Of a DNA stretch of 64,000 bases, positions 4,220 to 61,682 are shown in pieces. The stretch is from positions 122,670 through 186,669 of the forward strand of contig JBAZXK010000001.1 in NCBI GenBank assembly GCA_041659905.1. Reading direction: 5' to 3'. Both the position numbers and the translations under genes were made by a program. Origin of the DNA: Patescibacteria group bacterium. Lineage in GTDB: Bacteria; Patescibacteriota; Kazan-3B-28; UBA10110. Each line of letters starts with the position of its first letter. The stretch's first letter is position 1. The notes beneath the pieces were generated by a model. The model searched no databases and was not told where the DNA came from. It was given only the letters and a program-made list of their open reading frames with translations.

Positions 4220-4301
4220 TGTAAATATAATTTTGTGTTGGATAGATAAGCAGAAAGACCACTACTTGTGTTTTTAGCAAAAAGTATATATCATAAAATT
4301 A

Positions 4302-9186: not shown

Positions 9187-9226
9187 AGTCTGGATTTTCT
9201 CTGAGTTTTAAGTTATTATACAAGCT

Positions 9227-9676
9227 ATGAAGAAGGGTAAAGATCAGTCTAACCAGGCCAATTCTTTGCCTAAAAGGCTCTTGGCTCCACCTGGGCTCAT
9301 TATGACCGGCAGTGTTTTGTTGCTAGTTTTGGCAGAAAAATATTGGTTTAGAGGAGCCTTAGCTGAAGATCTCCCTTCTGGCGATACGGCAGCCGGTTTT
9401 AACGTTTTTGCTGATCTGATTCAAGAAGCAGCAGGGCCGCTGGTGGGGGTGATCGCCGTTGCGGCGGTGGTAGCCGGAGGAATTATTTATGCTCTTTCCG
9501 GCGGGGAACCAGGGAGAGTTAAAATGGCTAAAAATGTTATTTTATCAGCTATTTACGGCCTGATACTATATATTCTTATGAAATGGTTAATGCAACTTTT
9601 AGGTACTACAGTTACTGATTATTTCTCCGATTTAACTAACATTGCTTGGGTGATGTTTGGTCCTAAGCTTGGCTAA
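9227..9676 (+). CDS. small membrane protein with signal-like N-terminus and two hydrophobic helices (VirB2/TrbC pilin-like topology)
   Basis: Basic N-terminus, then hydrophobic stretches GPLVGVIAVAAVVAGGIIYAL and VILSAIYGLILYILMKWLMQLL separated by a short polar loop. No SD. Confidence 0.45.
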   Translation: MKKGKDQSNQANSLPKRLLAPPGLIMTGSVLLLVLAEKYWFRGALAEDLPSGDTAAGFNVFADLIQEAAGPLVGVIAVAAVVAGGIIYALSGGEPGRVKMAKNVILSAIYGLILYILMKWLMQLLGTTVTDYFSDLTNIAWVMFGPKLG

Positions 9677-9678
9677 TT

Positions 9679-12553: not shown

Positions 12554-14494
12554 TTGGTTATGATTCAGGTACGATTTAAACCAGATTTGGGGAAGATGCC
12601 GCGGCAGCCGGGGTGCTATTTGATGTCTGACAAAACTGGCAAAGTAATTTATGTGGGCAAGGCGGTAGATCTCCGCAAACGAGTGGCGTCTTATTGGAAC
12701 AAAACTAACCAGCCGATTAAGACCAGTAAACTGTTGGAAAAAGTAGCCAAACTGAATTTTATGATCACCGATACCGAAACCGAAGCTTTGATTCTAGAAA
12801 ATCAGTTAATCAAAAAGCACATGCCCCAATTCAATATTCTACTGCGGGATGATAAAAGCTATCAGTATATTAGGATTGATCTTAATCAGCCCTATCCGGT
12901 GATTGAGGTGGTGCGCAATCCACGCACAATTAAAAAAGAGGCTCGGGTGCGCTATTTTGGGCCCTATACCAGCGGATTGGCGGTAAAATATACTTTACAG
13001 TTGATCAATAAAATTTTTCCGCTGTGTGCTAATGCGGCCATTTTAAATAAAAATGTGCCAACTTCATGTCATTCTGAGCGTAACGAAGTGAAGTCGAAGA
13101 ATCTACGAGCACCAACTTCGAGATCCCTCGACTGCGCTCGGGATGACAAAAGAAAAGGTGGGGTGAAACCCTGTTTGAATTGGCATCTGGGCAAATGTCT
13201 GGGTGTATGTGTCGGACAAAGTTCCAGTGCCGAATATCATCAAGTGGTGCATGAAGTAATCGATTTTTTGAGCGGTAAGGCCAAAGATTGGCGGAAGTAT
13301 TTGCGAGAGCGGATGGAAGCGGCTGCGGCGGGCAAACGCTTTGAAGACGCGCTGAAGCTCCGCGAACAAATTGCCGCCCTTGATATTATTGTTTCCAAGC
13401 AAAAAGTGGCCCAGCCGGATGAATTGATTAGTCAGGATATTTGGGGCTGGCTGGTAACCTCCGAACAGGCGGTGGTGACTATTTCGAAGATCAGACAAGG
13501 AAAAGTAATCGATTATCAAACATTTGTGTTGCGTTTGCCGATGGAAATCAAGTTAGACGAATTTGTCGGGGAAGCGCTCCGGTCAATTTATTCCGCCACC
13601 CTGGATAACTGGCCGAAAGAAATTTTATTGCCGCATTTGCCTAAAGATAGGGTGGCGTTAGAAAAATGGTTGAGTAATTTAGCCGGTCATACCGTCAGAA
13701 TTGCCGTGCCGCAAAAGGGGATTAAAAAACAATTATCTCTCTTGGTGCAAAAAAATGCCGTAGAACAAGCCAGCGCTAAAGTTGGCGCCAATTTGCAAAT
13801 TAAAACTGCCCTCACCCGGCTGCAAAAGTTATTGCAGATCAAACGCCTCAAGCGGATTGAAGCGTATGACATTTCTCATTTGGGCGGGACGGCCACCGTG
13901 GGTTCTATGGTAGTATTTGTGGATGGCAAACCAGCCAAAGCGCAATATCGGCGGTTTCGGATTAAAACCGTGCGTGGGATTGACGATTATGCGTCTTTGG
14001 GCGAAATGATTTATCGCCGCCTGCGTCCGCGGCGCTTAGCCGACAAACGATTTGCCGAAAATCTGCCCGATTTGATTTTGATTGATGGCGGTAAAGGGCA
14101 ATTAAACACTATCATTCGCCAAACCAATCAAATCAATTTACCTAATCTCCCTAAGATTATAAGTTTAGCTAAACGGGAAGAAGAAATTTTTGCGTCCGAT
14201 CAAGCTACGGGGATTAAATTATCTTTGAGTTCGCCGGAACTGCAACTATTACAACGAATTCGTGACGAAGCCCATCGCTTCGCGATTTCTTACCAAGCTG
14301 TGTTGCATAGCCGGGAGTTACGAGGCACCACCAAGATCCCCGGCATCGGCCCGGCCACGCAGAAAAAACTAGTCAAAGTCTTCGGAAGCTTGCGGGCCGC
14401 CCGCCAGGCCAGTCTAAGTGAGCTAGAAAAAATAGTTGGACAAAAAGCCCGCCTGATCAAAGATAATTTGTCAGATTCTGCCAGAGGTTTATGA
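12554..14494 (+). CDS. uvrC: Excinuclease ABC subunit C (UvrC) carrying an in-frame ~33-codon insertion from a palindromic repeat
   Basis: GIY-YIG (PGCYLM...GKVIYVGKA), Cys-rich region KPCLNWHLGKCLGVCV, and C-terminal RNaseH-like and HhH domains. The extra peptide SCHSERNEVKSKNLRAPTSRSLDCARDDKRKGG is encoded by repeat A1. Confidence 0.92.
   Translation: MVMIQVRFKPDLGKMPRQPGCYLMSDKTGKVIYVGKAVDLRKRVASYWNKTNQPIKTSKLLEKVAKLNFMITDTETEALILENQLIKKHMPQFNILLRDDKSYQYIRIDLNQPYPVIEVVRNPRTIKKEARVRYFGPYTSGLAVKYTLQLINKIFPLCANAAILNKNVPTSCHSERNEVKSKNLRAPTSRSLDCARDDKRKGGVKPCLNWHLGKCLGVCVGQSSSAEYHQVVHEVIDFLSGKAKDWRKYLRERMEAAAAGKRFEDALKLREQIAALDIIVSKQKVAQPDELISQDIWGWLVTSEQAVVTISKIRQGKVIDYQTFVLRLPMEIKLDEFVGEALRSIYSATLDNWPKEILLPHLPKDRVALEKWLSNLAGHTVRIAVPQKGIKKQLSLLVQKNAVEQASAKVGANLQIKTALTRLQKLLQIKRLKRIEAYDISHLGGTATVGSMVVFVDGKPAKAQYRRFRIKTVRGIDDYASLGEMIYRRLRPRRLADKRFAENLPDLILIDGGKGQLNTIIRQTNQINLPNLPKIISLAKREEEIFASDQATGIKLSLSSPELQLLQRIRDEAHRFAISYQAVLHSRELRGTTKIPGIGPATQKKLVKVFGSLRAARQASLSELEKIVGQKARLIKDNLSDSARGL
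13068..13147 (+). repeat. Family-A palindromic mini-repeat copy A1 (terminal IR gtcattctgagcg/cgctcgggatgac), inside uvrC
   Basis: 13-nt terminal inverted repeats flank a palindromic core. The core matches the reverse complement of the copy at 60465-60544 and the copy at 49478-49550. Confidence 0.8.
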
Positions 14495-16087: not shown

Positions 16088-21644
<5,557 letters not shown>

Positions 21645-27265: not shown

Positions 27266-29713
27266 ATGCTCTGGGGAGTAGTTATCACCATTCTAATTTT
27301 AGCCGGACTTGCTGTAGGCGGGTATTTTTTATCGAAGAATCGTAAGCAAAGCTCTGTCCGCCAACAGGCAGCTGCCGCTCTGAAAAGAAAACTCTTTCGG
27401 ATTACTGTTCCCAAGGGCGATCCGGAAACAGACAAAGCCAAAGAACTCAAAGACCTGATCGCCCCAGTCGAGGTGTTATTGCGCAACTTGCATGCGATGC
27501 AAGAAACTTTGCGCGGCGAGTACCTTACCCTAGAAATATTAGCTACCCAAGGATTTATCTCATTCTATGCCAGCGTACCGGGCGCACTGGCATCGTTATT
27601 GGAGAGACAAATTACAGCTCAGTATTCTGAAGCCACAGTGGAAGAAGTGGACGATCCCAATATTTTCCCTAAACAATGCGCTACCGCCGCTGTGCAGCTA
27701 GCTTTGAAGAAAGACTTCGTTTTTCCTATTCGAACTTACAAAACTTTCGAGACTGATACGCTCAATGCGCTGACTAATGCTTTGAGTAAATTAAACGAGA
27801 GCGCCGAGGGGGCCGGAGTGCAGATTTTAGTTCGTCCGGTGGACGATAAATGGCAAAAGAAGGGACAATTTGTCGCTAGCCAAATGAAGGCAGGCAAATT
27901 TTCTGATGATTCGTTGGCTCAAGGCGTGCTGAAGGGGATTGGAGGATTGTTAGTGCCCGGGGCAAGTAAAACCAACGATAAATCCAAACCAGAAGAGCTT
28001 AAACCGCTGACATCGGCCCAAGAAAAAATTATTCAAACGATTGGCGAAAAAGCGGCTCAGCCAGGTTTTGAAGTAGTCATCCGGTTAGTCACAGCCGCAG
28101 CTACTCCCGAAAATGCCAAAATTAACTTAAATAATATCCTGAGTAGTTTTAGCCAATTTACTTCCGAGACCAACAGATTTACTATCGCCAAGTTGCCAGA
28201 AGAAAAAGTGATGACACAGTTTATTTTCCGGTTATTCAGTTTAGGTAAGCCGGATATTCTCAACACCGAGGAAGTGGCCTCACTCTGGCATTTGCCGACA
28301 GCCCGGCTAGAAACGCCAAATATCCGCTGGATGCGCGCCAAGAAACTACCGCCGCCCAGTAACTTACCAAAAGAGGGGATTACCTTAGGAAAAAGCGTCT
28401 ATCGGGGAGTAGAAGCGATCATTAAAATGGAAGATGATGATCGGCGCCGGCATATCTATTGCATTGGTAAAACCGGGACGGGGAAAACTACTTGGATGCA
28501 GAATTTAGCTTACCAAGATATTATGGCCGGCAAGGGCGTCTGTGTCGTAGATCCGCATGGCGATATGGCTGATTGGTTGCTGGCGCGTATTCCGAAAGAA
28601 CGTGTGGATGACGTGATCTTGTTTTATCCTCCTGATCTTGATCGTCCCATGGGACTCAATATGTTAGAAGCCAAAACTTCTGCGCAAAAACAGGAAGTCG
28701 TTGCCCAATTGATTGCTATTTTCTATAAATTATTCGATCCTACTGGCAGCAATCAAATCATCGGCCCGATGTTCGAGCATTACATGCGTAATGCCATGCT
28801 CGCTCTCTTGGCGGATGACGAAAACGGAACTACTCTCGTAGAAATCCCGCGCATGTTCACAGACACCGAATTTCGCAATCAAAAGCTGGCTAAAGTGACA
28901 GATCCGGTGGTTAAACAATTCTGGTTGCAAGAATATGCCCAATCGCAACGCGGTCAGCAGTCGGCGGATATGTTGAGCTATGTGGTTAGCAAAATCGGCC
29001 GGTTTATCAGTAACGATATGATGCGGAATATTGTCGGGCAGACTAAGTCGGCCTTTGATCTGCGCGATATTATGGATAATAAGAAAATTCTGCTAATCAA
29101 TTTGGCCAAAGGCCTGACGGGAGATATCAACAGCAACCTGCTCGGATTTATTTTGGTGTCTAAGATTCAGATGGCCGCTTTATCACGGGCAGATATTCCG
29201 GAAAGTGAGCGCCAAGATTTTTATTTGTATATTGATGAGTTCCAAAATGTAACCACGGATTCAATTTCCATTATCTTATCAGAAGCCCGCAAATATCATT
29301 TAAATTTAATCGTCGCGCATCAGTTTGTGGCACAGTTGGATGAAAAGATCCGTGAGGCGGTTTTGGGAAATGTGGGGACTATGGTAAGCTTTACTATTGG
29401 CGCTACGGATGTGGAGGTGGTCGGCAAGCAATTTGCCCCGGAAGTGAGCGCCAATGACCTGATTAACATCGAAAATCGCAACGCCTATATTAAATTATTG
29501 ATTGATGGGGCAGTCAGCAAGCCATTTAACTTAACTGCGCTGCCGCCGATGGGGGAGGCCAGACCAAAAGTGGCGCAAGCCCTGAAGAATTTGTCCCGCT
29601 TGAAATATGGCCGGGATCGGAGAATAGTAGAGACAGAAATTATCCGGCGTAATCAGCTTCCGCCCAAATCAGCTAATCCACCTAAAACAGGGGATAAACC
29701 TACTTCTGTCTAA
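27266..29713 (+). CDS. membrane-anchored VirD4/TraG/TrwB-like ATPase, paralog 2
   Basis: N-terminal TM; Walker A CIGKTGTGKT, DPHGD, LYIDEFQNV. Same architecture as the CDS at 16088-18979. Confidence 0.7.
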   Translation: MLWGVVITILILAGLAVGGYFLSKNRKQSSVRQQAAAALKRKLFRITVPKGDPETDKAKELKDLIAPVEVLLRNLHAMQETLRGEYLTLEILATQGFISFYASVPGALASLLERQITAQYSEATVEEVDDPNIFPKQCATAAVQLALKKDFVFPIRTYKTFETDTLNALTNALSKLNESAEGAGVQILVRPVDDKWQKKGQFVASQMKAGKFSDDSLAQGVLKGIGGLLVPGASKTNDKSKPEELKPLTSAQEKIIQTIGEKAAQPGFEVVIRLVTAAATPENAKINLNNILSSFSQFTSETNRFTIAKLPEEKVMTQFIFRLFSLGKPDILNTEEVASLWHLPTARLETPNIRWMRAKKLPPPSNLPKEGITLGKSVYRGVEAIIKMEDDDRRRHIYCIGKTGTGKTTWMQNLAYQDIMAGKGVCVVDPHGDMADWLLARIPKERVDDVILFYPPDLDRPMGLNMLEAKTSAQKQEVVAQLIAIFYKLFDPTGSNQIIGPMFEHYMRNAMLALLADDENGTTLVEIPRMFTDTEFRNQKLAKVTDPVVKQFWLQEYAQSQRGQQSADMLSYVVSKIGRFISNDMMRNIVGQTKSAFDLRDIMDNKKILLINLAKGLTGDINSNLLGFILVSKIQMAALSRADIPESERQDFYLYIDEFQNVTTDSISIILSEARKYHLNLIVAHQFVAQLDEKIREAVLGNVGTMVSFTIGATDVEVVGKQFAPEVSANDLINIENRNAYIKLLIDGAVSKPFNLTALPPMGEARPKVAQALKNLSRLKYGRDRRIVETEIIRRNQLPPKSANPPKTGDKPTSV

Positions 29714-32273: not shown

Positions 32274-32299
32274 AGGCCCACACTATGTGGGCTTTTTAT
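32274..32299 (+). terminator. rho-independent terminator
   Basis: ggcccacactatgtgggc followed by tttttatttt. Confidence 0.65.
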
Positions 32300-35200
32300 T
32301 TTAACAACTGAATAACTTTTTTTAAGGAAGATAACCAGTGTTCGCCTAAAGCCGATAAAGGAATTTTGATAGTTTTTTCGGTTATTTTCCCATTCAAATT
32401 ACTAATAGCGTTCAGAATGTTGCTGTCTTTCACTACCGTATTTAAAATGACACTGATAATCTGTTCGGGGGTTCGTCTAATCCCCGCTTCGTTGCGCGAT
32501 AACATCGAGACAACTTTTTGGGTTTCTAATGCCGTGATTTTCAAATCGATCAATTCGAACAGATTCAACACTTCTTTTGGCAGTTTGCCGAATTTGACTT
32601 CTAACTCTGCGGCGGCGTCTTTTAATTCGTTGATCGTTTCGACTAAAGCCAATTGTTGATAGGTTTTGATCCGCTGAGCCTCATTGTCGATATAGGTAGC
32701 CGGGAGATAGGCCGAAATGGGCAAATCTACTGTGATGGTATCTACTCGCGGTTTGTAGCCGGTTTTTAATTCTTCAATCGCTCGGTTAAGGAGTTTAGTG
32801 TACATCGTTAACCCAATGGCGCTGATATGGCCATGCTGTTTTTTCGACAGCACTCCGCCAGCTCCCCGGATCTGCAAATCCCGGAGGGCTATCTGATACC
32901 CGCTCCCTAGTTCTGTGTGTCCTGCAATGGTTCTAAGCCGTTCCAGGGCCTTTCCGGCCAGCTTCCCGGGATGGTAATAGAAATAGGCGTGAGCCTGAAC
33001 TTTACCGCGCCCGATCCGGCCGCGCAGCTGGTGCAATTGAGATAGGCCGAAATGGCTAGAATTATCTACGATCAATGTATTTACATTCGGATTATCTAGC
33101 CCGTTTTCGATAATAGTGCTGGCCACTAAAACATCATATTTGCCGGCGCTAAAATCTTCCATAATTTTTGCGAGTAGGCGTTCCGGCATTTGTCCATGGG
33201 CATATACAAACCGCACTTCCGGCAAAACTTCCTCAAGTTTATTAGTCATTGAGGCGATGGTTGCCACGCGGTTATGCACAAAATAAATCTGTCCGCCGCG
33301 TTTAATTTCCTGTAAAACCGCATCCTTCACCGCATCCATATCAAAAGGCGCCACCGTAGTTTGAATAGGCAGGCGATTAACCGGCGGAGTGTCGATCGTA
33401 CTAATATCGCGGATGCCGGATAGGGCCAAGTTAAGCGTGCGCGGAATCGGGGTAGCCGTCATACTTAAAACATCCACTTCCGCTCGCATCATTTTTAACT
33501 TTTCTTTATGGCGGACACCAAAGCGCTGTTCCTCGTCGACAATAATCAATCCTAGGTTGGCAAATTTAACATCTTTTGAAAGCAACCGATGGGTGCCGAT
33601 CACAATATCGATTTCGCGAGTCTTTAATCCTACTAAGACGCGTTTTTGTTCAGTTTGTGAGCGGAAACGGCTCAGCGCAGCAATGTTAACGCCAAAAGGC
33701 GCTAATCGTTCCGTAAATGTTTTTAAATGCTGTTCTACTAAAATGGTAGTAGGAGCCAAGAAGGCCACTTGGAATCCGGAAGTAACTGCTTTAAAGGCGG
33801 CCCGGATAGCTACTTCCGTTTTACCAAAGCCCACATCGGCTACCAGTAACCGGTCCATCGGTTTAGACTGTTCCATATCACCCAAAATTTCTTGGATAAC
33901 TTGTTCTTGGTCGGGGGTTTCTTGATAAGAAAAAGAATCGGATAAAGCCTTTTCCCAAAACTCCGGACTGTCGAAAGAAATCCCCTCTTTCAGCGCCCGT
34001 TTGGCGTACAAATCTAGTAGTTCTTTCGCAAACTCTTGGGATTCTTTGCGGATCTGGCTGACTAAGCGTTTCCAACTTTGCGAATTCAGTTTGGATAAAG
34101 TCGGTTTTTCGCCGGCCGGTGAAATATACTTACTGATCTTATCGATCTGATCCATCGGGGCATAGATTTTATCTGCCCCCGCATATTTAATGATTAAATA
34201 TTCTCGGGCGACGCCGTTTACCGTCATTGTCGAGATATCAATGAGCTTACCGATACCATAATCGACATGCACTACGTAATCGCCTTTTTCAATTTGGGCT
34301 AAAAAGGCCAGCTGTCGTTTTTTTGGTGTCGGTTTGGTAGTAGCAGATTTTTCCACAATCGGAGAAAAAATTTCTTTATCAGTCAATAAGATAGTTTTTA
34401 AAGACGGACTCATAAATCCGTCGACATGCAAAGCCGGGGTGATGATTACCGACTGATCAGAAATTTCGCGATCAAATTTAATATCATTATCAGTTAGGGC
34501 GGGTAAGATCTGAGCTTCTTTGTTGGTGGTAAGAATAATTTGCCAACCCTCGTCGGTATATTTAGTTACCTCATGAATTAGTCGGTTTAAATCATTGGCG
34601 AATAAGGGGGCTTCAGTTAGATCAAACCGGACTGAGTTTTTTTCGTCAGCGGCTATATTAACAAGATGCCAGGCCGCCAAACCCTCGAGTTGTTTACTGA
34701 TAGTGGTTAAAATACCGTTGTCGCGTTGACTGTCATTGCTTTGGTAAAGCTCATATAATAATTGGAATAACTCGTCAGCTTGATCGAAAACTAAAATATA
34801 ATCTGTCGAATGAGCTTCGATCACATCCAGTAAATAATTGCTCATCTTTTCATTTTTCAATGAGGATACGGTAATTTCGGTGCGGGCCGATCCAGTTTTG
34901 TTATTTACTGGGTCAAAATCGACGATACTGGTGATAGTATCTCCGGAAAATTCTAAGCGCACCGGGGAAGCAAAGTTAACCGGATAAATATCTAAAATTC
35001 CACCCCGCATGGCAATTTCTCCCGCCTGAAAAACTTTTTGCTGGCGATCGTAACCGGCAGCAATGAGGGCAGCTAGGATTTCTTCTGGGTTTTTATTTTG
35101 ATTAATTTCGAGAGTGAGAATCTGTGCCGGATTAGTCAGAGGTTCGATCAGCGCCTGCACGGAGAAGATGAACAAACCGGGTTCGCCATTTTTTAAGGCA

Positions 35201-35613
35201 TGGGCGGTCAGGGTGCGATTTTGAAAATTATGAATATATTGTTGACGATTGATTTGTTCTGATTTTAGATCCGGATAACCATAAACGGGACGATCGGTTA
35301 ATTGTTGGAGCCCTCGTTCGATGGCGATCTGATCGCTCTCATTTTTGACAATGTAGATAACTTTTTTTGGACAATCGGTCAGAGTGCGCGACAACAAAAA
35401 CAACTTCCCTAAATTAGTCAGGCCAGTGATATAAACTTTGTCTTTGCGCGAACGGCTAATTAAGGATTTGTACGCTTCTAGACTACTGAATTTTTGGGCG
35501 AGAGCAGAGAGAATCGGATCCACTTCCTTATTGACCTTTATGTTATTATATGGTATAATTAAGAGATAGTTCTTTGAATTTTTTGCTGTGGTATAATTAT
35601 CTGTTTGTTCCAA
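32296..35613 (-). CDS. mfd: Transcription-repair coupling factor Mfd (true start is possibly the GTG near 35521)
   Basis: UvrB-homology N-terminus, CarD-like domain, and DEAD-box helicase motifs (GFGKTEVA, DEEQRFG). Alignment logic suggests about 30 N-terminal residues of the listed ORF are non-coding. Confidence 0.9.
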   Translation of the reverse strand: MEQTDNYTTAKNSKNYLLIIPYNNIKVNKEVDPILSALAQKFSSLEAYKSLISRSRKDKVYITGLTNLGKLFLLSRTLTDCPKKVIYIVKNESDQIAIERGLQQLTDRPVYGYPDLKSEQINRQQYIHNFQNRTLTAHALKNGEPGLFIFSVQALIEPLTNPAQILTLEINQNKNPEEILAALIAAGYDRQQKVFQAGEIAMRGGILDIYPVNFASPVRLEFSGDTITSIVDFDPVNNKTGSARTEITVSSLKNEKMSNYLLDVIEAHSTDYILVFDQADELFQLLYELYQSNDSQRDNGILTTISKQLEGLAAWHLVNIAADEKNSVRFDLTEAPLFANDLNRLIHEVTKYTDEGWQIILTTNKEAQILPALTDNDIKFDREISDQSVIITPALHVDGFMSPSLKTILLTDKEIFSPIVEKSATTKPTPKKRQLAFLAQIEKGDYVVHVDYGIGKLIDISTMTVNGVAREYLIIKYAGADKIYAPMDQIDKISKYISPAGEKPTLSKLNSQSWKRLVSQIRKESQEFAKELLDLYAKRALKEGISFDSPEFWEKALSDSFSYQETPDQEQVIQEILGDMEQSKPMDRLLVADVGFGKTEVAIRAAFKAVTSGFQVAFLAPTTILVEQHLKTFTERLAPFGVNIAALSRFRSQTEQKRVLVGLKTREIDIVIGTHRLLSKDVKFANLGLIIVDEEQRFGVRHKEKLKMMRAEVDVLSMTATPIPRTLNLALSGIRDISTIDTPPVNRLPIQTTVAPFDMDAVKDAVLQEIKRGGQIYFVHNRVATIASMTNKLEEVLPEVRFVYAHGQMPERLLAKIMEDFSAGKYDVLVASTIIENGLDNPNVNTLIVDNSSHFGLSQLHQLRGRIGRGKVQAHAYFYYHPGKLAGKALERLRTIAGHTELGSGYQIALRDLQIRGAGGVLSKKQHGHISAIGLTMYTKLLNRAIEELKTGYKPRVDTITVDLPISAYLPATYIDNEAQRIKTYQQLALVETINELKDAAAELEVKFGKLPKEVLNLFELIDLKITALETQKVVSMLSRNEAGIRRTPEQIISVILNTVVKDSNILNAISNLNGKITEKTIKIPLSALGEHWLSSLKKVIQLLK

Positions 35614-39637: not shown

Positions 39638-39725
39638 TTCCTCCCCTTACGGAGGGGAGGTTAGGTGGGGAGTGTTTATCTAAACTCCCACCTCCCCTCA
39701 CCCCTCCTCGGGCAGGAGGGGAAGA
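39638..39725. repeat. Family-B GC-rich triple-hairpin element (copy B1) in the dacA-aspS spacer, donating the dacA SD
   Basis: cctccccttacggaggggagg, ggtggggagtgtttatctaaactcccacc, and cccctcctcgggcaggagggg. Shares GGAGGTTAGG(A/T)GGGGAG with B2 and B3. Confidence 0.8.
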
Positions 39726-44211: not shown

Positions 44212-44320
44212 TTCCTCCCCTTACGGAGGGCCTGCCTGCCGGTAGGCAGGGAGGTTAGGAGGGGAGTTAACACTAAACCCCTACCCCTTAAATACTAGAT
44301 GTTAACCCCTAGATGCTGTG
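44212..44320. repeat. Family-B GC-rich composite element (copy B2: head + tail modules)
   Basis: cctccccttacggagggcctgcctgccggtaggcagggaggttaggaggggag, followed by the tail module shared with B4. Confidence 0.75.
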
Positions 44321-44324
44321 CGGT

Positions 44325-45188
44325 TTACTTGGCTAAAGCGCGGAGTAATCTAATGTCTTGAATGTCCAGTCTGGGATCCCCCGTCCGGGGAGTTTCCAGA
44401 ATCAGTGGACGTTCCCTGATGATTGGATTAGTCAGTAAGGCCCTAATTCCTTCTTCGCCGATAAACCCTTTGCCGATATTCTCGTGCCGGTCTTTTTTAG
44501 AGCCCAGATCAAACATGGCGTCGTTCATATGGATAAAGGCAAGATGTTCAAGACCTATTAGTTTATCAAATTTATCGAGCATCTGGGAAACATCTTTGGG
44601 AGTACGCAAATCTATCCCGGAAACAAACATGTGACAGGTATCTAAGCAGAATCCAAATCTTTTTTTAGTTTTTAAGCCTTTCCAGATAGCTCCTAGCTCT
44701 TCGATAGTATCCCCGATCTTATTCCCCGCCCCGGCATCACTCTCAATAATCAGCCGAACCGGCCATTTTTCATCAGTTAATTCAGCTAAACGATTAAGAG
44801 TGGCAACAGCGTTTTTGATACCCGGCTTATCCCCGTCTTGATTACTGCCGCAGTGAAAATTATAACCGTCGGCACCGATTTGATAAGCGATCTTAGCCTC
44901 TTCTTTGAGTTTTTTGAGGCTGAGATTGCGCAAAACATCTCGGTTGCTGGCCGGGTTGGGTAAATACGCGGCATGGACTAAAACTTTCTCTACGCCCGAG
45001 CGATGCCAGGCCGTCCTGAAATCGGCTGCCTCCTGATCGGTGATTTCCGGTGTTTCCCATCTTTGGGGTGGGCCTACGAAAATTTGAATAACATCGCAAT
45101 CTAATAATTCAGCTTCTGCAAATGCGCCAGGCAGCCCGCCGGCGATAGACACCTGGTAACCAGCTTTGATTTTATTCCCCATTGTCAT
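44325..45188 (-). CDS. nfo: Endonuclease IV (AP endonuclease family 2)
   Basis: Metal-binding motifs HAAYLPN, HCGS, ESDAG, LDTCHMF, HMND. Confidence 0.9.
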   Translation of the reverse strand: MTMGNKIKAGYQVSIAGGLPGAFAEAELLDCDVIQIFVGPPQRWETPEITDQEAADFRTAWHRSGVEKVLVHAAYLPNPASNRDVLRNLSLKKLKEEAKIAYQIGADGYNFHCGSNQDGDKPGIKNAVATLNRLAELTDEKWPVRLIIESDAGAGNKIGDTIEELGAIWKGLKTKKRFGFCLDTCHMFVSGIDLRTPKDVSQMLDKFDKLIGLEHLAFIHMNDAMFDLGSKKDRHENIGKGFIGEEGIRALLTNPIIRERPLILETPRTGDPRLDIQDIRLLRALAK

Positions 45189-45657: not shown

Positions 45658-45855
45658 TTACTTCTTCTTTAGGATTGGCAAACCAGTACGAGAGCTCTCT
45701 ACTACTTTATAAAGAGCGGGAACTTCATTTTGGGCACCAACGCCAGCAACTTTTGCAAAGTAATAAATCATCTGTTTGCGTCCACCTTTAAGGGTGACGT
45801 TCTTGCCGTGCAAGAAATAGGTTTTGCCCTTACTGTTGCGATAGCTAAAAGACAT
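45658..45855 (-). CDS. small conserved hypothetical protein (65 aa)
   Basis: SFSYRNSKGKTYFLHGK..GGRK.IYYFAK pattern resembles a widespread small protein family of unknown function. Confidence 0.45.
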   Translation of the reverse strand: MSFSYRNSKGKTYFLHGKNVTLKGGRKQMIYYFAKVAGVGAQNEVPALYKVVESSRTGLPILKKK

Positions 45856-46601: not shown

Positions 46602-47498
46602 TCAATCAACTAGCCGTAGATCTGGCCAGCCGGCCTGCCAGTCGGTTCTTAATTCTGCAGTAAGATATCTTTCGGCCTCAAAAATCGATGGCTCTGCATT
46701 GTTTGCAAAGTATTCTGTCAAAATTACATCTACATCACTGAAGAAGTGATCTCTTTGCCTAGCGGGAAGTTCTTTTGTGTTATGGCAGTATTGTCTCCAT
46801 GCCCTATCATCATAGAGTCGGTCCAACGGCAGCCACTGCCACATCTGTCGGTTAAAGGGTAGCAACTGAAGATCTTTAGTAAGTTCTGCAGAAGAAGGAA
46901 CAATAAAATTGTCGCTCACTTCCAAAGATCCCAAGGGACTGCCCAAGACATGGTAAATTATACCGGTTATCATTACATTTTTTGTATAATCACTATATCC
47001 TGCTGGCAATTCCTCAAAAGTGGGGTAATAATTAAGCAAATCCTTGTCACTGATCGCTGTATTAACTACACAATGGGGCACTGTGGCATTAGGGATTACT
47101 ACCATGCGAAAATCCGCATATTGCAACGCAGGAAATGATACACCGTTATGATTGGAATTGCGAACAAATAACTCAGGATTTCCGTTGAGTTTGGTGTAAT
47201 ATCTCTGAGTTGGAGGCTTGATTGCCCCTGACTCCAACGAGATAACACTAAGTGCGCTAACTAGGATTAAACATATCAATAATACAGTGCTGTCGCGGAA
47301 CAAAACCCAAGCAAGCTCTAACAGAAGATACGGACGATCTTCTCTGTCGGTTGTACCAAGAGAATTAACAGCGCCAGAAATCCGGCGGATTTCGTTGGGG
47401 AGTATGCGGCGCGCTATGACAATCGTAATAATAACGACCGTAATAGCACCCAGCCACGATAATACCCAGTAACTCCAAAATAGGACATCGCTATTCAT
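46602..47498 (-). CDS. membrane-anchored hypothetical protein, paralog 1 of tandem pair
   Basis: N-terminal TM helices. Shares WQWLPLDRLYDDRAWRQY / FQWLPWERFRDNQQWYAKE and other blocks with the CDS at 47741-48490. Confidence 0.6.
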   Translation of the reverse strand: MNSDVLFWSYWVLSWLGAITVVIITIVIARRILPNEIRRISGAVNSLGTTDREDRPYLLLELAWVLFRDSTVLLICLILVSALSVISLESGAIKPPTQRYYTKLNGNPELFVRNSNHNGVSFPALQYADFRMVVIPNATVPHCVVNTAISDKDLLNYYPTFEELPAGYSDYTKNVMITGIIYHVLGSPLGSLEVSDNFIVPSSAELTKDLQLLPFNRQMWQWLPLDRLYDDRAWRQYCHNTKELPARQRDHFFSDVDVILTEYFANNAEPSIFEAERYLTAELRTDWQAGWPDLRLVD

Positions 47499-47513
47499 AG
47501 CGTGCCTCCTTAA

Positions 47514-47578
47514 TTTTCAATAGTGTCAGGCGCATTTACCTGTAGGGTCAGAATAGCAGAAAAACCGCTCCCAGTCAA
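47514..47578 (-). promoter_or_regulatory. conserved promoter (TTGACT-GGGAGCGGTTTT..TATTCT) plus conserved 5'-UTR hairpin for paralog 1
   Basis: Minus strand: TTGACTgggagcggtttttctgcTATTCT, then cugcaggNaaaugcgccugacacuauugaaaauu, about 90% identical to the copy at 48524-48592. Confidence 0.6.
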
Positions 47579-47740
47579 GGTTTTGTATATATTACGTTGT
47601 TTCAGGCTAGATCTGAGATCTTAAATTTCTATATTGGAGGGGCACCACTCAGCCAGTTGATAGAACACCTCAATCCCAATTAAAAACCCGCCCGTTAAGG
47701 CGAGGTTTTCTTCTATACTGCTAGTAGTGATGTGCAAATA

Positions 47741-48490
47741 TTACCAGTTATTGCTCTTACTCACGAGCGTAAAATCTGGCATATACCAATCGTGCCTCAA
47801 GCTTGTTATGATAGCCTGCTTGGCGGCTTCAGTGGTGGGTTGGGTAATTGTTGTGCCAAGATAATCTTGGAATGCCACTGTTGCTTGATTGAAGAACATA
47901 TTTTCTTGAATAACCACGAGGTCATTGTTGTGTTCTTCCTTGGCGTACCATTGTTGATTATCTCGAAATCGTTCCCAAGGCAACCACTGAAAACCACTGC
48001 GCTGGTGTTCCTCTAAAGCAAGAGAAACAAAGGAGTCATCTCCTTCAAGGAGTCGCTGGGAAAATGGTTTGAAAGTAACTATTATCTCGGCATAGTAAGG
48101 ATCTTCTGATGTCCCTTCGAGGAGAAATCTGCGAGTCACTTCAACCGTGGCATAGCGCTTAATGTAATGGTCCGGCTCTATGGGGTTAGATATCATTACC
48201 CCTTGGCTGTTCCTTTGATAAACATAACCGAGTACCGTTGATGTGTCAGCAATAGATAGAGGAGCTGCTGAAGATAAGGGTAGCCCGATAATAGGGATGG
48301 CCTTAGTAGAATTATCAGGTTGGAACAAAGAAAGTGAACCACCGAACAGTAGTGCATATCCCCATAATCCAGTCAGTGCAAACATTAGGCCTCGCCAACC
48401 CCGATCGCGCATTACCACACCAATAATAATGAATACCACTGGCATTATCCATAGGATGTAGAAAAAACTAAATTCTATGTTTTCGAGCAT
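47741..48490 (-). CDS. membrane-anchored hypothetical protein, paralog 2 of tandem pair
   Basis: Same architecture as the CDS at 46602-47498, with an AAGGAG SD. Confidence 0.6.
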   Translation of the reverse strand: MLENIEFSFFYILWIMPVVFIIIGVVMRDRGWRGLMFALTGLWGYALLFGGSLSLFQPDNSTKAIPIIGLPLSSAAPLSIADTSTVLGYVYQRNSQGVMISNPIEPDHYIKRYATVEVTRRFLLEGTSEDPYYAEIIVTFKPFSQRLLEGDDSFVSLALEEHQRSGFQWLPWERFRDNQQWYAKEEHNNDLVVIQENMFFNQATVAFQDYLGTTITQPTTEAAKQAIITSLRHDWYMPDFTLVSKSNNW

Positions 48491-48523: not shown

Positions 48524-48592
48524 AAAATTTTCAATAGTGTCAGGCGCATTTGCCTGCAGAGTTAGAATAGTATAAAACCCGCTCCCAGTCAA
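48524..48592 (-). promoter_or_regulatory. conserved promoter module plus 5'-UTR hairpin for paralog 2
   Basis: Minus strand: TTGACTgggagcgggttttatacTATTCT...gcaggcaaatgcgcctgacactattgaaaatt. Confidence 0.6.
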
Positions 48593-48709
48593 TATTTTAA
48601 TGTAACTTCTCCTTCCAGGCCAGAGGCGATTTTGCTCGGAGGGTAATATTATTCTTCGCCTGCCCGTGCCGGACTTGAGCGGCCAGGGAGTGAAATCGAG
48701 AAGTACTTT

Positions 48710-49462
48710 TTAGAGCTTATTTATTGGTAAAACAACCTCACGGATTTTGATTTTGGTGGGGAGAGCGGAAGTGGGGTTAAATTTTAAGAGTTGGTTAATA
48801 GTCAGGGGTATAGAAACCAGGCCAGTAGCCGGGTGTACGGAATAGGGGCTTCGGATCATCCCGTTTTTATGAATAATTTGTTCATCGAGTAAGATTGACT
48901 TGGCGGTAGTTTTGTCGGTGGAGCTGGTGGTAATAATCGGATTTTTCTTTAGAATAATTTTATAAAATTCGCCAGCATGTTTTGTTTGTAAGATTGTTTC
49001 CAATTCTGCTGCAAATTGTCTAATCTGTTTCCTGAATTTCAGCCAGTCCGGCTTCACATCACCTAGGCTCCACATAAAGTGAAATCCCCGATTACCGGAG
49101 AACTTCAGTAGATATTCAATGCCCTTTTTATCCAATAATTTCGCCATTTCGTAAGCGGCCAATTTAACCAAATCAAACATTTTATCTGTGCGCGCATCCA
49201 AATCCATCACAAACCAAACATCTTTTTCTCCTAATAGATGCGGATGGAATGAATAAGTGTGTAATTTCGCCCAAGCGATAATGTCTTTCGGACTATTTAG
49301 AGTAATCCAGCCGGATTTATCCGGTAGACCTTTGGCGCCATGCCGGCGATATAAAATATTCTTGTCAAAAACCTGTTGGACAGCGATTTTTCGATTCCGC
49401 AAAAATGGCCATGCTGCTGGCACCGCTTTTCCCCAATAATCTACTAACCAAGGTATCGGCAT
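48710..49462 (-). CDS. LigD-type primase-polymerase domain protein (AEP family, NHEJ polymerase)
   Basis: VWFVMDLDA (DxD) and FSGNRGFHF (SGxRGxH) motifs. The track start at 49552 (TTG) lies inside repeat A3; the ATG at 49462 (MPIPWLV) is preferred. Confidence 0.7.
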   Translation of the reverse strand: MPIPWLVDYWGKAVPAAWPFLRNRKIAVQQVFDKNILYRRHGAKGLPDKSGWITLNSPKDIIAWAKLHTYSFHPHLLGEKDVWFVMDLDARTDKMFDLVKLAAYEMAKLLDKKGIEYLLKFSGNRGFHFMWSLGDVKPDWLKFRKQIRQFAAELETILQTKHAGEFYKIILKKNPIITTSSTDKTTAKSILLDEQIIHKNGMIRSPYSVHPATGLVSIPLTINQLLKFNPTSALPTKIKIREVVLPINKL

Positions 49463-49477
49463 AACTCTTCTCTTTTT

Positions 49478-49550
49478 GTCATCCTGAGCGGAACAACAGT
49501 GGAGTCGAAGGATCTCCTCCACTAGATTCCTCGACCTCGCTCGGAATGAC
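49478..49550 (+). repeat. Family-A palindromic mini-repeat copy A3 between the ligase and polymerase genes
   Basis: gtcatcctgagcg...cgctcggaatgac termini; core gtggagtcgaaggatct...agattcctcgac. Confidence 0.8.
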
Positions 49551-49561
49551 AATAATAGATA

Positions 49562-50593
49562 TCAGTTCTCTTTAATAACTAATCTAGATGGTTTATCCAC
49601 TCGCAATCCCATATATACCGGTTGGCGCAGGATATTGTCTTTAGTCCATTCGCCAAAGGCAAATTCCCCCACCAGCCGCGGTTTGAGCCAGATAACAGTT
49701 TCATTTCTGGTTACCATACTCCCTCCCCTCCTAACCTCCTCGCCTAGCCGGCGAGGCTGGCCCTCTGCAGGGGAGGATTTTTTGGAGATGTCGACAAATG
49801 GAGATTTGGTGGATTTAAGTTTTAAGAATTTCTGCTTGAGCTCGCCACGCTCTGTATCAGTAAAACCAGTGCCGACTTTTCCGGCATAAACTAACTTCTT
49901 ACCCCGGTAATAACCCACCAAAACCGCTCCGAAAGTAGTTTTAGTCTTACCCTGACCGGGAGTGTAGGCCCCGATGACAAATTCCTGTTGGTTGTGGGTT
50001 TTGATCTTCACCCAATCACCGCTCCGCCTACCTTCTTGGTAGCGACTATCTATTCTTTTACCGATAATGCCCTCCCAGTGTTTTTGCTTAGCTTTTTTAA
50101 AAAGAGAGATGCCGTCGCTAGATAATGGTGCTAAATAATATAAAACCCCGAGTATGTAGGGTGGGTGAGGCTTGAATAGTAATCTAAGCTTTTCTTTACG
50201 CTCCAGCAGAGATTTAGTTTCCCAATTCTTGCCGTCATAATTTAGCAAATCAAAGGCCAAGTAGGCTGCCGGAACCCTTTTAGTCAGCTTGGCAATTTCA
50301 TGAGGATCGGTTTGACCAATGCGCGGCTGCAGAGCCTGAAAGCTACTAATACCTTTGCGAAAAGCGGTGATCTCACCATCTAGCACCAACTGTTTGGGAG
50401 ATAATTTCTTAATGGCTGCAACAATTTCCGGAAATTGTTTTGCCTTGTCTTTATTGTTTCGCGTCAGCAGTCTAACTTTTTCTCCGGTTTTAATTGCAAT
50501 AATCCGCATCCCGTCAATTTTATGCTCAAAAACCCACTCCTTGCTCTTGAAGGGTTTATCAACCAACCGGCAAAGCATCGGAGCGTATTTCAT
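49562..50593 (-). CDS. ATP-dependent DNA ligase (LigD/LigC-like ligase domain) carrying an in-frame family-B repeat insertion near the C-terminus
   Basis: Adenylation motif EHKIDGMR, OB-fold tail ...WLKPRLVGEFAFGEWT..LRQPVYMGLRVDK. The peptide SPAEGQPRRLGEEVRRGGS is encoded by repeat B3. Confidence 0.85.
   Translation of the reverse strand: MKYAPMLCRLVDKPFKSKEWVFEHKIDGMRIIAIKTGEKVRLLTRNNKDKAKQFPEIVAAIKKLSPKQLVLDGEITAFRKGISSFQALQPRIGQTDPHEIAKLTKRVPAAYLAFDLLNYDGKNWETKSLLERKEKLRLLFKPHPPYILGVLYYLAPLSSDGISLFKKAKQKHWEGIIGKRIDSRYQEGRRSGDWVKIKTHNQQEFVIGAYTPGQGKTKTTFGAVLVGYYRGKKLVYAGKVGTGFTDTERGELKQKFLKLKSTKSPFVDISKKSSPAEGQPRRLGEEVRRGGSMVTRNETVIWLKPRLVGEFAFGEWTKDNILRQPVYMGLRVDKPSRLVIKEN
49719..49785 (-). 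repeat. Family-B GC-rich element copy B3 inside the ATP-dependent ligase ORF
   Basis: The reverse complement reads cctcccctgcagagggccagcctcgccggctaggcgaggaggttaggaggggaggg. Compare B2 gagggcc-[hairpin]-aggttaggaggggag. Confidence 0.75.
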
Positions 50594-50706: not shown

Positions 50707-52323
50707 TTAGTCTTTCGGAAGAGTGCCGGTGCAGGTAATGTCAGCACCTGGCAAATCTTCTTTTAGCTGGTCGCAATCCTCCGTAGTTACTCCCCGTCCA
50801 GACAGTTTTAATGTGGATAGTTGTTTCAAATTAAATAATGGGGAAATATCTAACGCTGGCAATAAACTGCTGGTTCCTGACGGTAAACGCAAACAGCCAG
50901 GGCCGGACTCTCTCAGGTCAACCGCTTTTAATTTAGCGGAATAAAGAAAAGATCGGATAGAGGTGAGGGGTGATCCCCGGAATGAAACGGTATTCATCTG
51001 CGGGAAAGGCAAATCTTTAACTTCTAACTGGTCGTTCATATTAGGAGCTAGGCTGGCAGTAAAATCCAGACCCACGGGGCTCTTTAAGCAATCAGCGAAC
51101 AAATATCGCAGTTTCTTAAACCAGAGCGTCGCTGAAATAGAATCGAGATCATTGCCACTGACATCTAGCCACAACAGGTTGTGCAGATTCTCGACTACAT
51201 CCAATTCAGTGGCATTGGTAGATGACATCGACAAAATCTGGATATTTTCCAGCGGTTTTAGGGCAGAAAAATCAACGTGTCCAAAATTATCCACGGCTTG
51301 CACATTGCCGATAGTCAGAATGCGCAACTTGCTTAGCGCTGATATGGGAAATAAGTTAACTTTCGGGGTAAATGTATAAATTAGTTTTTGACTCACTTCA
51401 AACCCGGCCGCAGCGCTATCGGCATACGGCATCCACGAGTAGCTGCCATACCCCCCGACATTGCCGCCCTGATTTATGCTGGAGCCTTGGGCGCTCACAG
51501 AAGGGATTTGCAGCGCTTCCAGGCAAGTCAGATTTTTGATAGCAGCGAGAGCGCTATAATTGTTGTCGCGAAAATCTCCGGGAATTTTTACCCTGGATTG
51601 TTCCTTTACTCTATAAGAATTTTTATTTACAAAAACCGGTAATATCGATGGGCCACTGTAATTTTTAAGAGAGAGATCTCCTGCTTTGGGAAGTAAATTA
51701 CCTAGATCTGTTCCAGGCCCGAATGGCAAAAAGGTCTGCGGATATTCGGACACCTCAGCCGGGATATAAAATATTTCCGAAACCGTATCGCCAGAAGAAC
51801 TCCTAGCTCCCGATGTTAGTTTAATAGTGTCATTAGGATAATATTCGCCGTAACCTTTGTTATCGGGCAATTCATAGAAAGCTCGGCAGGCCGGATAATA
51901 TACCCTTTCCGTGGACGAAGTTTCCGTGATCTCGCCGGTTATGGGATCAGTAATTTTTTTGGTATGAGTTTCTTCTTTCCAATAAGATTTCTTTTTGCAA
52001 TTCTCCCACCACACCGCTGCCGAAAACTTTATTTTACTGGGGCCGTCTAGACCGATTAATCTCTTACTAAACAGGCCGTCTTCTTTAAATTGCCCCGACA
52101 AATCCGTGAGTTCCGTGCTCATTTCGTGATGAAGCAGAGGATTGTATTTAACGTATTCGGTAGCGTAATCCGAATTAGAGCATAATAATTTTTTGTTTTC
52201 GGCTAAGCGTTGATAAAGCCAGGAATTTAAAATCTTTTCCTGCGTGATCGGCGGTTTAATGGAACAACCCGATAAAATAATCAGGAAAGTTACTGTCACT
52301 ACGGCTGGCCACCACTTCTTCAC
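50707..52323 (-). CDS. leucine-rich-repeat lipoprotein (secreted/surface)
   Basis: Signal peptide with lipobox LSGCS. LRR consensus LxxLxxLxLxxN repeated (LENIQILSMSS, LHNLLWLDVSGNDL, LKQLSTLKLSG). Confidence 0.7.
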   Translation of the reverse strand: MKKWWPAVVTVTFLIILSGCSIKPPITQEKILNSWLYQRLAENKKLLCSNSDYATEYVKYNPLLHHEMSTELTDLSGQFKEDGLFSKRLIGLDGPSKIKFSAAVWWENCKKKSYWKEETHTKKITDPITGEITETSSTERVYYPACRAFYELPDNKGYGEYYPNDTIKLTSGARSSSGDTVSEIFYIPAEVSEYPQTFLPFGPGTDLGNLLPKAGDLSLKNYSGPSILPVFVNKNSYRVKEQSRVKIPGDFRDNNYSALAAIKNLTCLEALQIPSVSAQGSSINQGGNVGGYGSYSWMPYADSAAAGFEVSQKLIYTFTPKVNLFPISALSKLRILTIGNVQAVDNFGHVDFSALKPLENIQILSMSSTNATELDVVENLHNLLWLDVSGNDLDSISATLWFKKLRYLFADCLKSPVGLDFTASLAPNMNDQLEVKDLPFPQMNTVSFRGSPLTSIRSFLYSAKLKAVDLRESGPGCLRLPSGTSSLLPALDISPLFNLKQLSTLKLSGRGVTTEDCDQLKEDLPGADITCTGTLPKD

Positions 52324-60464: not shown

Positions 60465-60544
60465 GTCATCCCGACCATAGTGGAGGGATCTCGGCGCTTG
60501 TGTCTCGAGATTCTTCGACTCCACTTCGTTCCGCTCAGAATGAC
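60465..60544 (-). repeat. Family-A palindromic mini-repeat copy A4
   Basis: The reverse-complement core aacgaagtggagtcgaagaatct...cgagatccctcc matches the A1 core almost base for base. Right terminus is cgctcagaatgac. Confidence 0.8.
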
Positions 60545-60554
60545 AGATGTAGGG

Positions 60555-61682
60555 TTATTTGTTGACTAGTTGTTTGTAGAGTTTTTCGGTTTCATGCACC
60601 ATGGTAGTAACGGTGAATTTATGCAGAGTTTCATCCCCGCCCACCGTCAACTTTTTTTGTAATTTCTTGTCATTTAATAACTTCATAATCGTTACTGCTA
60701 ACTTCTTCGAGTCGCCAGGAGTGACCAAAATGCCATTCCGATTATGCGTGATGATTTCTTGGATGCCACCGACTTTGGTGGCAATGACTGGGATATGCGC
60801 TTTCATCGCCTCTAAAATCGAGATACCGAAAGCTTCCGACTTAGAGCACAGCACAAAAACTGTGAAGGTTTTTAAGATTGCTTCAATCCGCGGTAAGGCG
60901 CCAGTGAAAATAACTGCCGATTCTACTCTGAGCTTTTTAGCCAGGGTCTGCAGCCAATTTTGCAACGGACCGGCTCCCACAATCACCAGTTTGGCAGTGG
61001 GGATTTTTTTAAGAATATAGGGCATAATGCGCAGTAGGGTGGCGGTATCTTTTTGAATATTTAAACTGCCGATAGTGCCAATCACGACATCTTTTTTACA
61101 TAAATTATACTTTTCTAACAACTTACATTCATCGTCCGCTCGACCATCATTGATAATGGCGATACCGTTATAAATCACTTTGATTTTATTTGGCTTAGTA
61201 ATATTGGTGGCAATCAAAAAATCTGCTACTGCCTGAGAAACAGCGATAGTCATATCTGTCCATCTATCCAACATCCTGAGTGAACGAATATGCGCCCAAT
61301 GCAAGAGCGGATTGTCTAATTTAAAATCTTCTGTCCAGGTATGTTCGGTATAAACCACCTTAATAGGAAGATCGCGCACCGCCAACCGCGCCAGTAACCC
61401 TGCCCGCTGTCCATGAGCGTGCAAAATATCCGGGTCATACTTAGTTAACAGTTTTCTGATGGCACTCACCGCTGCCATATCTGAGCGGGATCGCATCGGA
61501 ACAAGAAAGGTATTGATATGCAGCCGGTTTAACTCATCAGCTAAAGGTCCTTGCGGCAAGATCACTGACACGCTAAATTCTTTGGGATCCAAATTGCCAA
61601 CCAGTGATAATAAATGCCGCGGGGCGCCAGTAATGGCACTTTCAGCAATGACATAAATGATACTAATCTTTTTTTTAGCCAT
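60555..61682 (-). CDS. Glycosyltransferase family 4 (GT4, RfaG-like)
   Basis: EAFGISILEAMKAHIPVIATKVGGIQEII..NGILV, the E-x7-E GT4 signature. Confidence 0.85.
   Translation of the reverse strand: MAKKKISIIYVIAESAITGAPRHLLSLVGNLDPKEFSVSVILPQGPLADELNRLHINTFLVPMRSRSDMAAVSAIRKLLTKYDPDILHAHGQRAGLLARLAVRDLPIKVVYTEHTWTEDFKLDNPLLHWAHIRSLRMLDRWTDMTIAVSQAVADFLIATNITKPNKIKVIYNGIAIINDGRADDECKLLEKYNLCKKDVVIGTIGSLNIQKDTATLLRIMPYILKKIPTAKLVIVGAGPLQNWLQTLAKKLRVESAVIFTGALPRIEAILKTFTVFVLCSKSEAFGISILEAMKAHIPVIATKVGGIQEIITHNRNGILVTPGDSKKLAVTIMKLLNDKKLQKKLTVGGDETLHKFTVTTMVHETEKLYKQLVNK

Follow-up and report, generated by a model that had tools for sequence, protein, structure and literature searches.

A 64-kb stretch of DNA (the window) from a Patescibacteria (candidate phyla radiation, CPR) metagenome-assembled genome was analysed around a pair of genes encoding an ATP-dependent DNA ligase and an archaeo-eukaryotic primase (AEP)-type primase-polymerase. 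Both genes lie on the minus strand, with the ligase upstream (49562-50593, 343 aa), a spacer of 99 nt (49463-49561) and the polymerase downstream (48710-49462, 250 aa). These are the coordinates that had been assigned in an earlier inspection of the letters without database searches (the sequence-only reading). The ligase protein is identical to GenBank MFA5967069.1 and the polymerase protein to MFA5967068.1, both encoded on one 343,940-bp contig. Both genes are already named automatically in GenBank, the ligase as a non-homologous end-joining (NHEJ) ligase. A literature search returned no paper tying Patescibacteria to ATP-dependent ligases and repair, or dealing with a ligase-polymerase (Lig-Pol) module in that group. 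The NAD-dependent housekeeping ligase LigA is also encoded in the window, as had been noted before (19006-20982, plus strand; Pfam DNA_ligase_aden, 2.9e-84, with OB, zinc-finger, HhH and BRCT domains), and the ATP-dependent enzyme is therefore a second ligation system.

The ligase

Two Pfam domains were identified in the ligase, DNA_ligase_A_M (PF01068, 3.7e-33, residues 5-198) and the OB domain DNA_ligase_A_C (PF04679, 1.7e-22, residues 218-334). The architecture is nucleotidyltransferase plus OB, with no N-terminal DNA-binding domain, the nucleotidyltransferase beginning at residue 5. The KxDG adenylation motif, which had been recognised together with the OB fold from the sequence, is K25-I-D27-G28, K25 being the motif I lysine. 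Residues K25, D27, G28, F114/D115, E174/G175 and K196/K198, which include motifs III, IV and V, were invariant in an alignment with relatives.

The ligase class was assigned by scores against curated hidden Markov models (HMMs) in place of a phylogeny. The protein passed the curated NCBIfam model of the LigD/NHEJ ligase domain (TIGR02779; 263.1 bits, cut-off 227.75) and missed the LigC-like model NF006078/PRK08224 (148.6, cut-off 296) and the LigB-like model PRK07636 (140.6, cut-off 337), which favours LigD in the choice, raised in the sequence-only reading, between LigD and LigC. The nearest solved structure is the ligase domain of M. tuberculosis LigD (1vs0, E = 3e-40), and the top plasmid matches are all annotated as LigD or NHEJ ligase. 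By these scores and motifs the protein is a stand-alone ligase of the LigD ligase-domain type, with its catalytic motifs intact.

The polymerase

The start of the polymerase was placed at the ATG at 49462. All relatives share this start, and in-frame stops lie immediately upstream of their Met. A TTG-extended open reading frame (ORF) of 280 aa was rejected because the extension enters a non-conserved palindrome. The motifs VMDLDA (D87, D89) and FSGNRGFHF (S122, G123, G126, H128), from which an AEP/LigD polymerase domain (PolDom) had been proposed, are real and invariant in 26 family members, as are D193, R204, S205 and H210 of the motif III region. The basic residues R24, R40 and H41 are invariant too. 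Pfam LigD_Prim-Pol (PF21686) was passed (57.3 bits, gathering score 27.4); NCBIfam ligD_pol (TIGR02778) was missed by a wide margin (42.2 bits, cut-off 214.7). When PDB sequences were compared with the AEP family profile, the motif III region of eukaryotic PriS matched at 3e-7 and LigD polymerase at 0.004. Motif III of the family is PriS-like in sequence, and by sequence the AEP stands roughly as near to eukaryotic PriS as to LigD polymerases.

An AlphaFold model was generated using the alignment of the 26 family members (pLDDT 95) and searched with Foldseek. The best match was M. smegmatis Prim-PolC (6sa1; E = 5e-15, TM 0.76), followed by the stand-alone Methanocella NHEJ polymerase (5dmu, 2e-14) and the PolDoms of Pseudomonas and Mycobacterium LigD (1e-12 to 1e-11). 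PriS was clearly more remote (about 5e-8).

In an alignment with genuine LigD proteins, the N-terminus of the AEP coincides with the 'DLxxYY' helix. The ~20 residues before this helix contain '(V/L)THP(D/E)R(V/I)...TK' in the LigDs; this segment is absent from the AEP, and the position equivalent to the pocket Lys is Ile3. In Prim-PolC, the 5'-phosphate pocket residues are N20, K23, Y25 and K35, the pocket segment is described as conserved in these polymerases, and Loop 3 (residues 313-333) recognises short gaps (PMC7442782). Profile positions 178-241 of the AEP align to Prim-PolC 213-277 and the AEP ends ~10 residues later, the Foldseek cover of the Prim-PolC target by the model being 0.58. 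Judged by these alignment offsets rather than by superposition, the AEP would end before Loop 3. The stretch from RRH to HTYSFH is also much shorter than in LigD PolDoms.

By its modelled fold the protein belongs with the NHEJ (Prim-PolD/Prim-PolC) AEPs, of which it is an unusual and trimmed form. At about 250 aa it is the shortest NHEJ-clade polymerase among those compared here. The sequence-only reading had called it a 'LigD-type polymerase'. This stands for the fold, which is that of LigD/Prim-PolC AEPs, and falls for a standard PolDom, on account of the low ligD_pol score and the absent pocket segment.

Gene neighbourhood of the pair

The spacer has no T-run terminator and no terminator-like site was found between the ligase and polymerase genes, so the two are probably co-transcribed. 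Within the clade of at least 60% AEP identity, 14 loci show the sequence upstream of the polymerase gene, and in 13 of them the ligase gene adjoins it. The exception is L024, where a gene for 3-methyladenine glycosylase (MPG) lies directly upstream of POL-x-PE (LIG, ligase; POL, polymerase; PE, LigD-type phosphoesterase; NFO, endonuclease IV gene nfo; PRX, peroxiredoxin; x, another gene). In L039 the order is LIG-POL-NFO with overlapping ORFs (142-1089, 1089-1805, 1792-2670), the ligase and AEP ORFs sharing 1 nt. In L046 it is LIG-POL-PE-NFO (7557-8504, 8506-9252, 9338-9874, 9926-10771), in L027 LIG-POL-PE-x-NFO, in L037 LIG-POL-PE and in L002 LIG-x-x-POL-PE-s65...NFO, where s65 is the small protein described below. 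The closest relatives (L006, L007, L035) have LIG-POL-PRX-s65-NFO. The PE gene adjoins the AEP gene in L002, L024, L027, L037, L038, L041, L042 and L046. nfo is operonic with Lig-Pol(-PE) in L027, L039 and L046 and lies at most 5 kb from the polymerase gene in the window, L002, L006, L007 and L035, with differing genes in between, a linkage seen in independent lineages. The resemblance of the pair to a split LigD, suggested from the sequence, is thus supported by relatives that carry PE as a separate gene, and also by distant relatives in which all three modules are fused (see below).

The window copy of nfo, the proposed end-cleaning partner, is at 44325-45188 on the minus strand (TIGR00587, 239.7 bits, cut-off 129.65). 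The gene order of the window is that of the closest relatives, LIG-POL-PRX-s65-NFO, plus two membrane-protein genes inserted between POL and PRX (46602-48490, minus strand). These two genes (46602-47498 and 47741-48490) are divergent paralogues arranged in tandem (E about 1e-6 to each other). Each has its own promoter-like site and terminator-like hairpin, and a 73-nt region is duplicated upstream of each (47512-47584 and 48526-48598; 88% identical, TTGACT-17-TATTCT). Since they are absent from this position in the closest relatives, the two genes are read as an insertion that has loosened the module in the window and moved nfo to its present distance downstream.

s65 (45658-45855, minus strand) is 65 aa long, basic and all-beta. 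It comprises 212 clusters, which range over Patescibacteria and some other phyla at 58-92% identity. In at least seven lineages its gene lies no more than ~4 kb from Lig-Pol, with varying side and position. No Pfam or NCBIfam family matched it. Its AlphaFold model (pLDDT 92) gave no significant PDB fold match; the best was the Pf3 single-stranded DNA-binding protein (SSB; E = 0.76), the weakest of hints toward small proteins of that kind.

Search for Ku

A Ku HMM was built from six annotated plasmid Ku proteins, and left-out members were each recovered at 223-326 bits. Nothing better than E = 0.3 was obtained in the 64-kb window and 41 related loci (about 540 kb). Between 43.2 and 57.1 kb each ORF was either searched against Pfam or had an annotation by way of L001, and no Ku was found within 5 kb of the pair, in agreement with the sequence-only reading; the HMM search extends this to the whole window. 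The precomputed Pfam lists of neighbouring genes in relatives contained no Ku, and none adjoined the module in about 25 informative loci. The absence of Ku is a local result, which holds for the window and the related loci.

Several candidates for Ku or a substitute were considered and set aside. In L002, two small ORFs (154 and 128 aa) separate the ligase gene from the polymerase gene. Neither matches a family, and the sole other loci that have them, L003 and L036, are copies of the L002 sequence. In L027, a 388-aa ORF was dismissed for its signal-peptide-like N-terminus and its lack of conservation. s65, which stays a possible substitute, has no family, no significant fold match and a wider spread than the AEP (212 vs 44 hits).

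The main rival explanation of the pair is a classical split two-component NHEJ, in which a Ku encoded elsewhere would recruit the separate ligase and polymerase (and PE) to double-strand breaks. It accounts for a ligase that passes the NHEJ ligase-domain equivalog TIGR02779 and is so named in GenBank, for the LigD_Prim-Pol match of the polymerase and for the linkage of PE in relatives, and split LigD modules acting with Ku are on record (Methanocella, 5dmu; excerpts of PMC7719229). It does not sit well with a module that has no Ku beside it in the about 25 informative loci and none in the about 540 kb, whose recurrent operon partner is Nfo, not Ku, and whose AEP is without the 5'-phosphate pocket segment (PMC7442782). 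NHEJ is also associated with large genomes (excerpts of PMC7719229). Split NHEJ is judged unlikely, although it is the most serious of the rivals.

Family range and fused relatives

The AEP family comprised 44 clusters among 5.8 billion proteins, 32 representatives at E <= 1e-30 among 1.84 billion proteins and 12 loci among 185,579 species genomes. The titles of all 12 loci name Patescibacteria, Kazan, Dojkabacteria or 'Saccharibacteria'. No relatives of the AEP were found in IMG/VR. The family is tiny and its named members are all Patescibacteria. The Lig-Pol core, with PE and Nfo in relatives, is known so far only from this group.

Further out, the AEP profile also picks up fusion proteins, in which ligase and PE domains join the polymerase in three orders (Lig-Pol-PE, Pol-Lig and Pol-Lig-PE-KTSC), and these fusions tie the AEP independently to ligation and 3'-end healing. 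An apparent 'POL::PE fusion' in L008 was not counted, as its PE match is partial (52/107 profile positions) and is followed by methyltransferase-like sequence. The 867-aa Pol-Lig-PE-KTSC fusion (L032:8001-10604) lies in a phage-like contig whose genes are all on one strand, with many small ORFs of unknown function and two large proteins with inteins. A phage or mobile origin was rejected; IMG/VR held no relatives, no mobile genes flank the pair and only this one distant fused relative is phage-like.

Other distant homologues stand in different surroundings. In L004 (7129-10720), a 44%-identical AEP homologue directly follows dnaG-rpoD on the same strand with a 48-nt gap, placed as if in a macromolecular-synthesis operon. 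In the Dojkabacteria-type loci L025 (5054-10789) and L026 (7274-10750), a solitary AEP homologue lies in a conserved cluster beside a LigT-like 2H phosphoesterase, an NYN nuclease, RNHCP and a helix-turn-helix regulator. The L025 cluster adds RtcB, and both clusters are of RNA-repair type, without a DNA ligase.

The window genes might, on another explanation, form no functional chromosome-repair pair. The AEP might then be a primase, repriming or translesion enzyme, the ligase might act on DNA taken up from hosts, or both might be mobile cargo. The distant homologues without ligase (dnaG-rpoD; RNA-repair-like cluster), the fused relative in the phage-like contig with inteins and the TraG/TrwB-like genes of the window are in line with such roles. 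This explanation is nevertheless very improbable, given that the two genes are adjacent in all but one of the 14 loci, once with a 1-nt overlap, that fusion proteins join both activities, that the neighbours are housekeeping genes in conserved synteny, and that relatives are missing from IMG/VR and no integrase or other mobile-element gene flanks the pair.

Proposed function in gap repair

The gene that recurs in operons with the module encodes endonuclease IV, joined in one lineage by a glycosylase gene, and a Ku-independent role in gap or excision repair is therefore favoured. With moderate confidence, the pair is taken to carry out Ku-independent excision or single-strand-break gap repair, like LigC/Prim-PolC. 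LigC/Prim-PolC, which binds EndoIV, MPG and FPG and does not bind Ku, closes gaps of 1-3 nt by ribonucleotide fill-in and ligation, and EndoIV is its best 3'-end/gap-processing partner (PMC5663958). The sequence-only reading had offered double-strand-break repair, gap repair and a role in DNA uptake. The operonic nfo of relatives favours gap or excision repair among these, and nothing was found to support uptake.

In the proposed mechanism, incision would come first, at an abasic site, a damaged base or a single-strand break with blocked ends. The 3' end would be cleaned by endonuclease IV, plus the LigD-type 3'-phosphoesterase where its gene exists. The 250-aa AEP would then fill a gap of one to few nucleotides, probably using ribonucleotides, by analogy with characterised relatives, and the LigD-type ATP-dependent ligase would seal the nick. 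The substrate would thus be gaps rather than double-strand ends, and the two enzymes may cooperate physically with Nfo.

Double-strand breaks could also be joined without Ku, if the AEP aligned and extended microhomologies and the ligase sealed them, possibly helped by an s65-like partner. An archaeal replicative PriS-type primase is reported to mediate double-strand-break repair (excerpts of PMC12019639) and motif III of the AEP family is PriS-like, a ligase alone can join ends in E. coli (excerpts of PMC6525309), and s65 is repeatedly found close to the pair. Against this, the module is linked to Nfo and MPG, which speaks for lesions of bases or single strands. The short RRH-HTYSFH stretch would make end bridging more difficult, should it be the equivalent of the synapsis Loop 1. 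For s65 no significant fold match was obtained (best E = 0.76), and its spread is wider than that of the AEP. Ku-independent end joining is accordingly thought quite unlikely, more so than split NHEJ.

Ku-independent gap repair itself faces several opposing observations. The ligase is of LigD type, not of LigC type, and PE is a classical NHEJ accessory. The AEP is without both gap-recognition devices of Prim-PolC, the 5'-phosphate pocket and Loop 3, and would have to find gaps in some other way. The nfo gene of the window is non-operonic, being separated from the upstream polymerase gene on the same strand by 3.5 kb that hold five genes and an opposite-strand tRNA; no PE gene was detected in the 64 kb using tblastn and phmmer with the PE of a relative. 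AEP homologues at 57% identity or less occur alone, without a ligase. The Ku scan of this genome covered 64 kb, which also counts in favour of split NHEJ, and the evidence throughout is sequence and gene context.

Palindromic elements

The spacer contains a palindromic mini-element of ~78 nt (49474-49551) with termini TGTCATTCCGAGCG...CGCTCAGGATGACA (fold z = -4.4). Related copies at 13067-13151 (in uvrC) and about 60490-60560 were found only by sensitive blastn. The dispersed element is ~80-90 nt long, with termini TGTCATTC[CT]GAGCG...CGCTCAG[AG]ATGACA. The copy in uvrC (12554-14494, plus strand) is in frame and adds ~30 aa (SCHSERNEVKSKNLRAPTSRSLDCARDDKRKGG) before the conserved Cys cluster with no stop, which recalls the Rickettsia palindromic elements.

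The ligase carries an in-frame insertion of 25 aa (S270-V294, SKKSSPAEGQPRRLGEEVRRGGSMV; 49712-49786) in a variable-length loop of the OB domain. At the DNA level this insertion forms a palindrome rich in GC (hairpin -37.6 kcal/mol, z = -2.5; TRF row 49722-49746). The insertion is absent from 12 of 12 aligned relatives, one of them at 79% identity. The protein with the insertion is on record at NCBI, JGI/IMG and ENA, and an ENA assembly contig encodes the exact sequence. Pieces of 17 nt of this palindrome recur at 44250-44266 and 39656-39672.

Exact and 3-mismatch searches returned one element per site, and no mini-element was found in the polymerase gene. The claim that both genes are riddled with mini-repeats was overstated; what remains of it is the one spacer element and the one in-frame ligase insertion. 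The ligase-polymerase spacers of L006 (3290-3435), L007 (3405-3553) and L027 (9911-10000) form strong hairpins of unrelated sequence (z = -2.6, -5.5 and -2.9, respectively). Hairpins at this junction may reflect either a preferred landing site or selection for a hairpin.

Other features of the window

The flanks are as the sequence-only reading described them, a leucine-rich repeat (LRR) lipoprotein and the paralogous membrane proteins. The lipoprotein (50707-52323, minus strand) has a lipobox; its LRR matches are weak and below the Pfam cut-off. Repair and topology genes are packed in one 35-kb stretch: uvrB (59-1978), topA (6967-9186), uvrA (9679-12528), uvrC, ligA and mfd (32296-35613). Two large proteins on the plus strand (16088-18979 and 27266-29713) have weak TraG/TraD and TrwB coupling-protein matches, which suggests a type IV secretion or DNA-transfer apparatus among the repair genes. 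An 885-aa N6-adenine methylase or Eco57I-like restriction-modification protein is encoded at 4302-6959 (plus strand) in a low-GC patch (GC 0.33, 4001-6000) and is possibly a horizontally acquired defence gene.

Comparison with known systems and implications

The closest parallel is mycobacterial LigC/Prim-PolC (PMC5663958, PMC7442782), in which a stand-alone AEP is likewise operonic with a stand-alone ATP-dependent ligase; of the known structures, Prim-PolC also comes nearest to the AEP model. Both are Ku-independent, here by gene context alone, and both are linked to endonuclease IV and glycosylases, here by gene neighbourhood only and there physically. The ligase of the window differs in being of LigD-domain type, the AEP is ~100 aa shorter than Prim-PolC (identity ~21%) and is without Loop 3 and the 5'-phosphate pocket, and in Patescibacteria relatives the pair is accompanied by a PE gene of LigD type. 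The two systems are not orthologous.

With LigD of M. tuberculosis and P. aeruginosa the module shares the ligase-domain family, the AEP fold and, in relatives, PE. Its domains are separate genes, its operon partner is Nfo, no Ku was found in the examined loci, and its polymerase is far below the ligD_pol cut-off and has no THPDR...TK pocket segment. The NHEJ set of Methanocella paludicola (separate Lig, Pol, PE and Ku) also consists of stand-alone modules, and its polymerase (5dmu) is the second-best fold match, with ~34 more N-terminal residues than the AEP. Ku is present there in an end-joining system (cited in excerpts of PMC7719229), whereas for the present module the search for Ku was negative and the gene context is that of excision repair.

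A LigD-type ligase without detectable Ku is also the mark of 'LigD only' genomes, a state common in a survey of bacterial NHEJ, in which 90% of such genomes were without POL and PE (excerpts of PMC7719229). In contrast, this lineage retains POL and often PE, coupled to nfo. Patescibacteria are unmentioned in the excerpted text of that survey.

A bolder proposal, which we regard as quite unlikely, is that the module is an undescribed minimal Patescibacteria machine, made of a LigD-type ligase, Nfo with or without PE, and an AEP able to recognise its substrate despite having neither pocket nor Loop 3, and serves as the main patch-filling system in reduced genomes. Such a machine might lay RNA patches, replace other repair polymerases and use s65 as a DNA-binding accessory instead of Ku.

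The annotation 'non-homologous end-joining DNA ligase' for such ligases probably over-states current knowledge. The trimmed AEP is a useful test of which substrate-recognition elements are essential. The function of LigD modules without Ku is described as an open question (excerpts of PMC7719229), for which this lineage is a clean case in nature. That very small genomes keep a compact, conserved Lig-Pol-(PE)-Nfo operon without Ku argues that the LigD toolkit can serve excision and single-strand-break repair beyond actinobacterial LigC.

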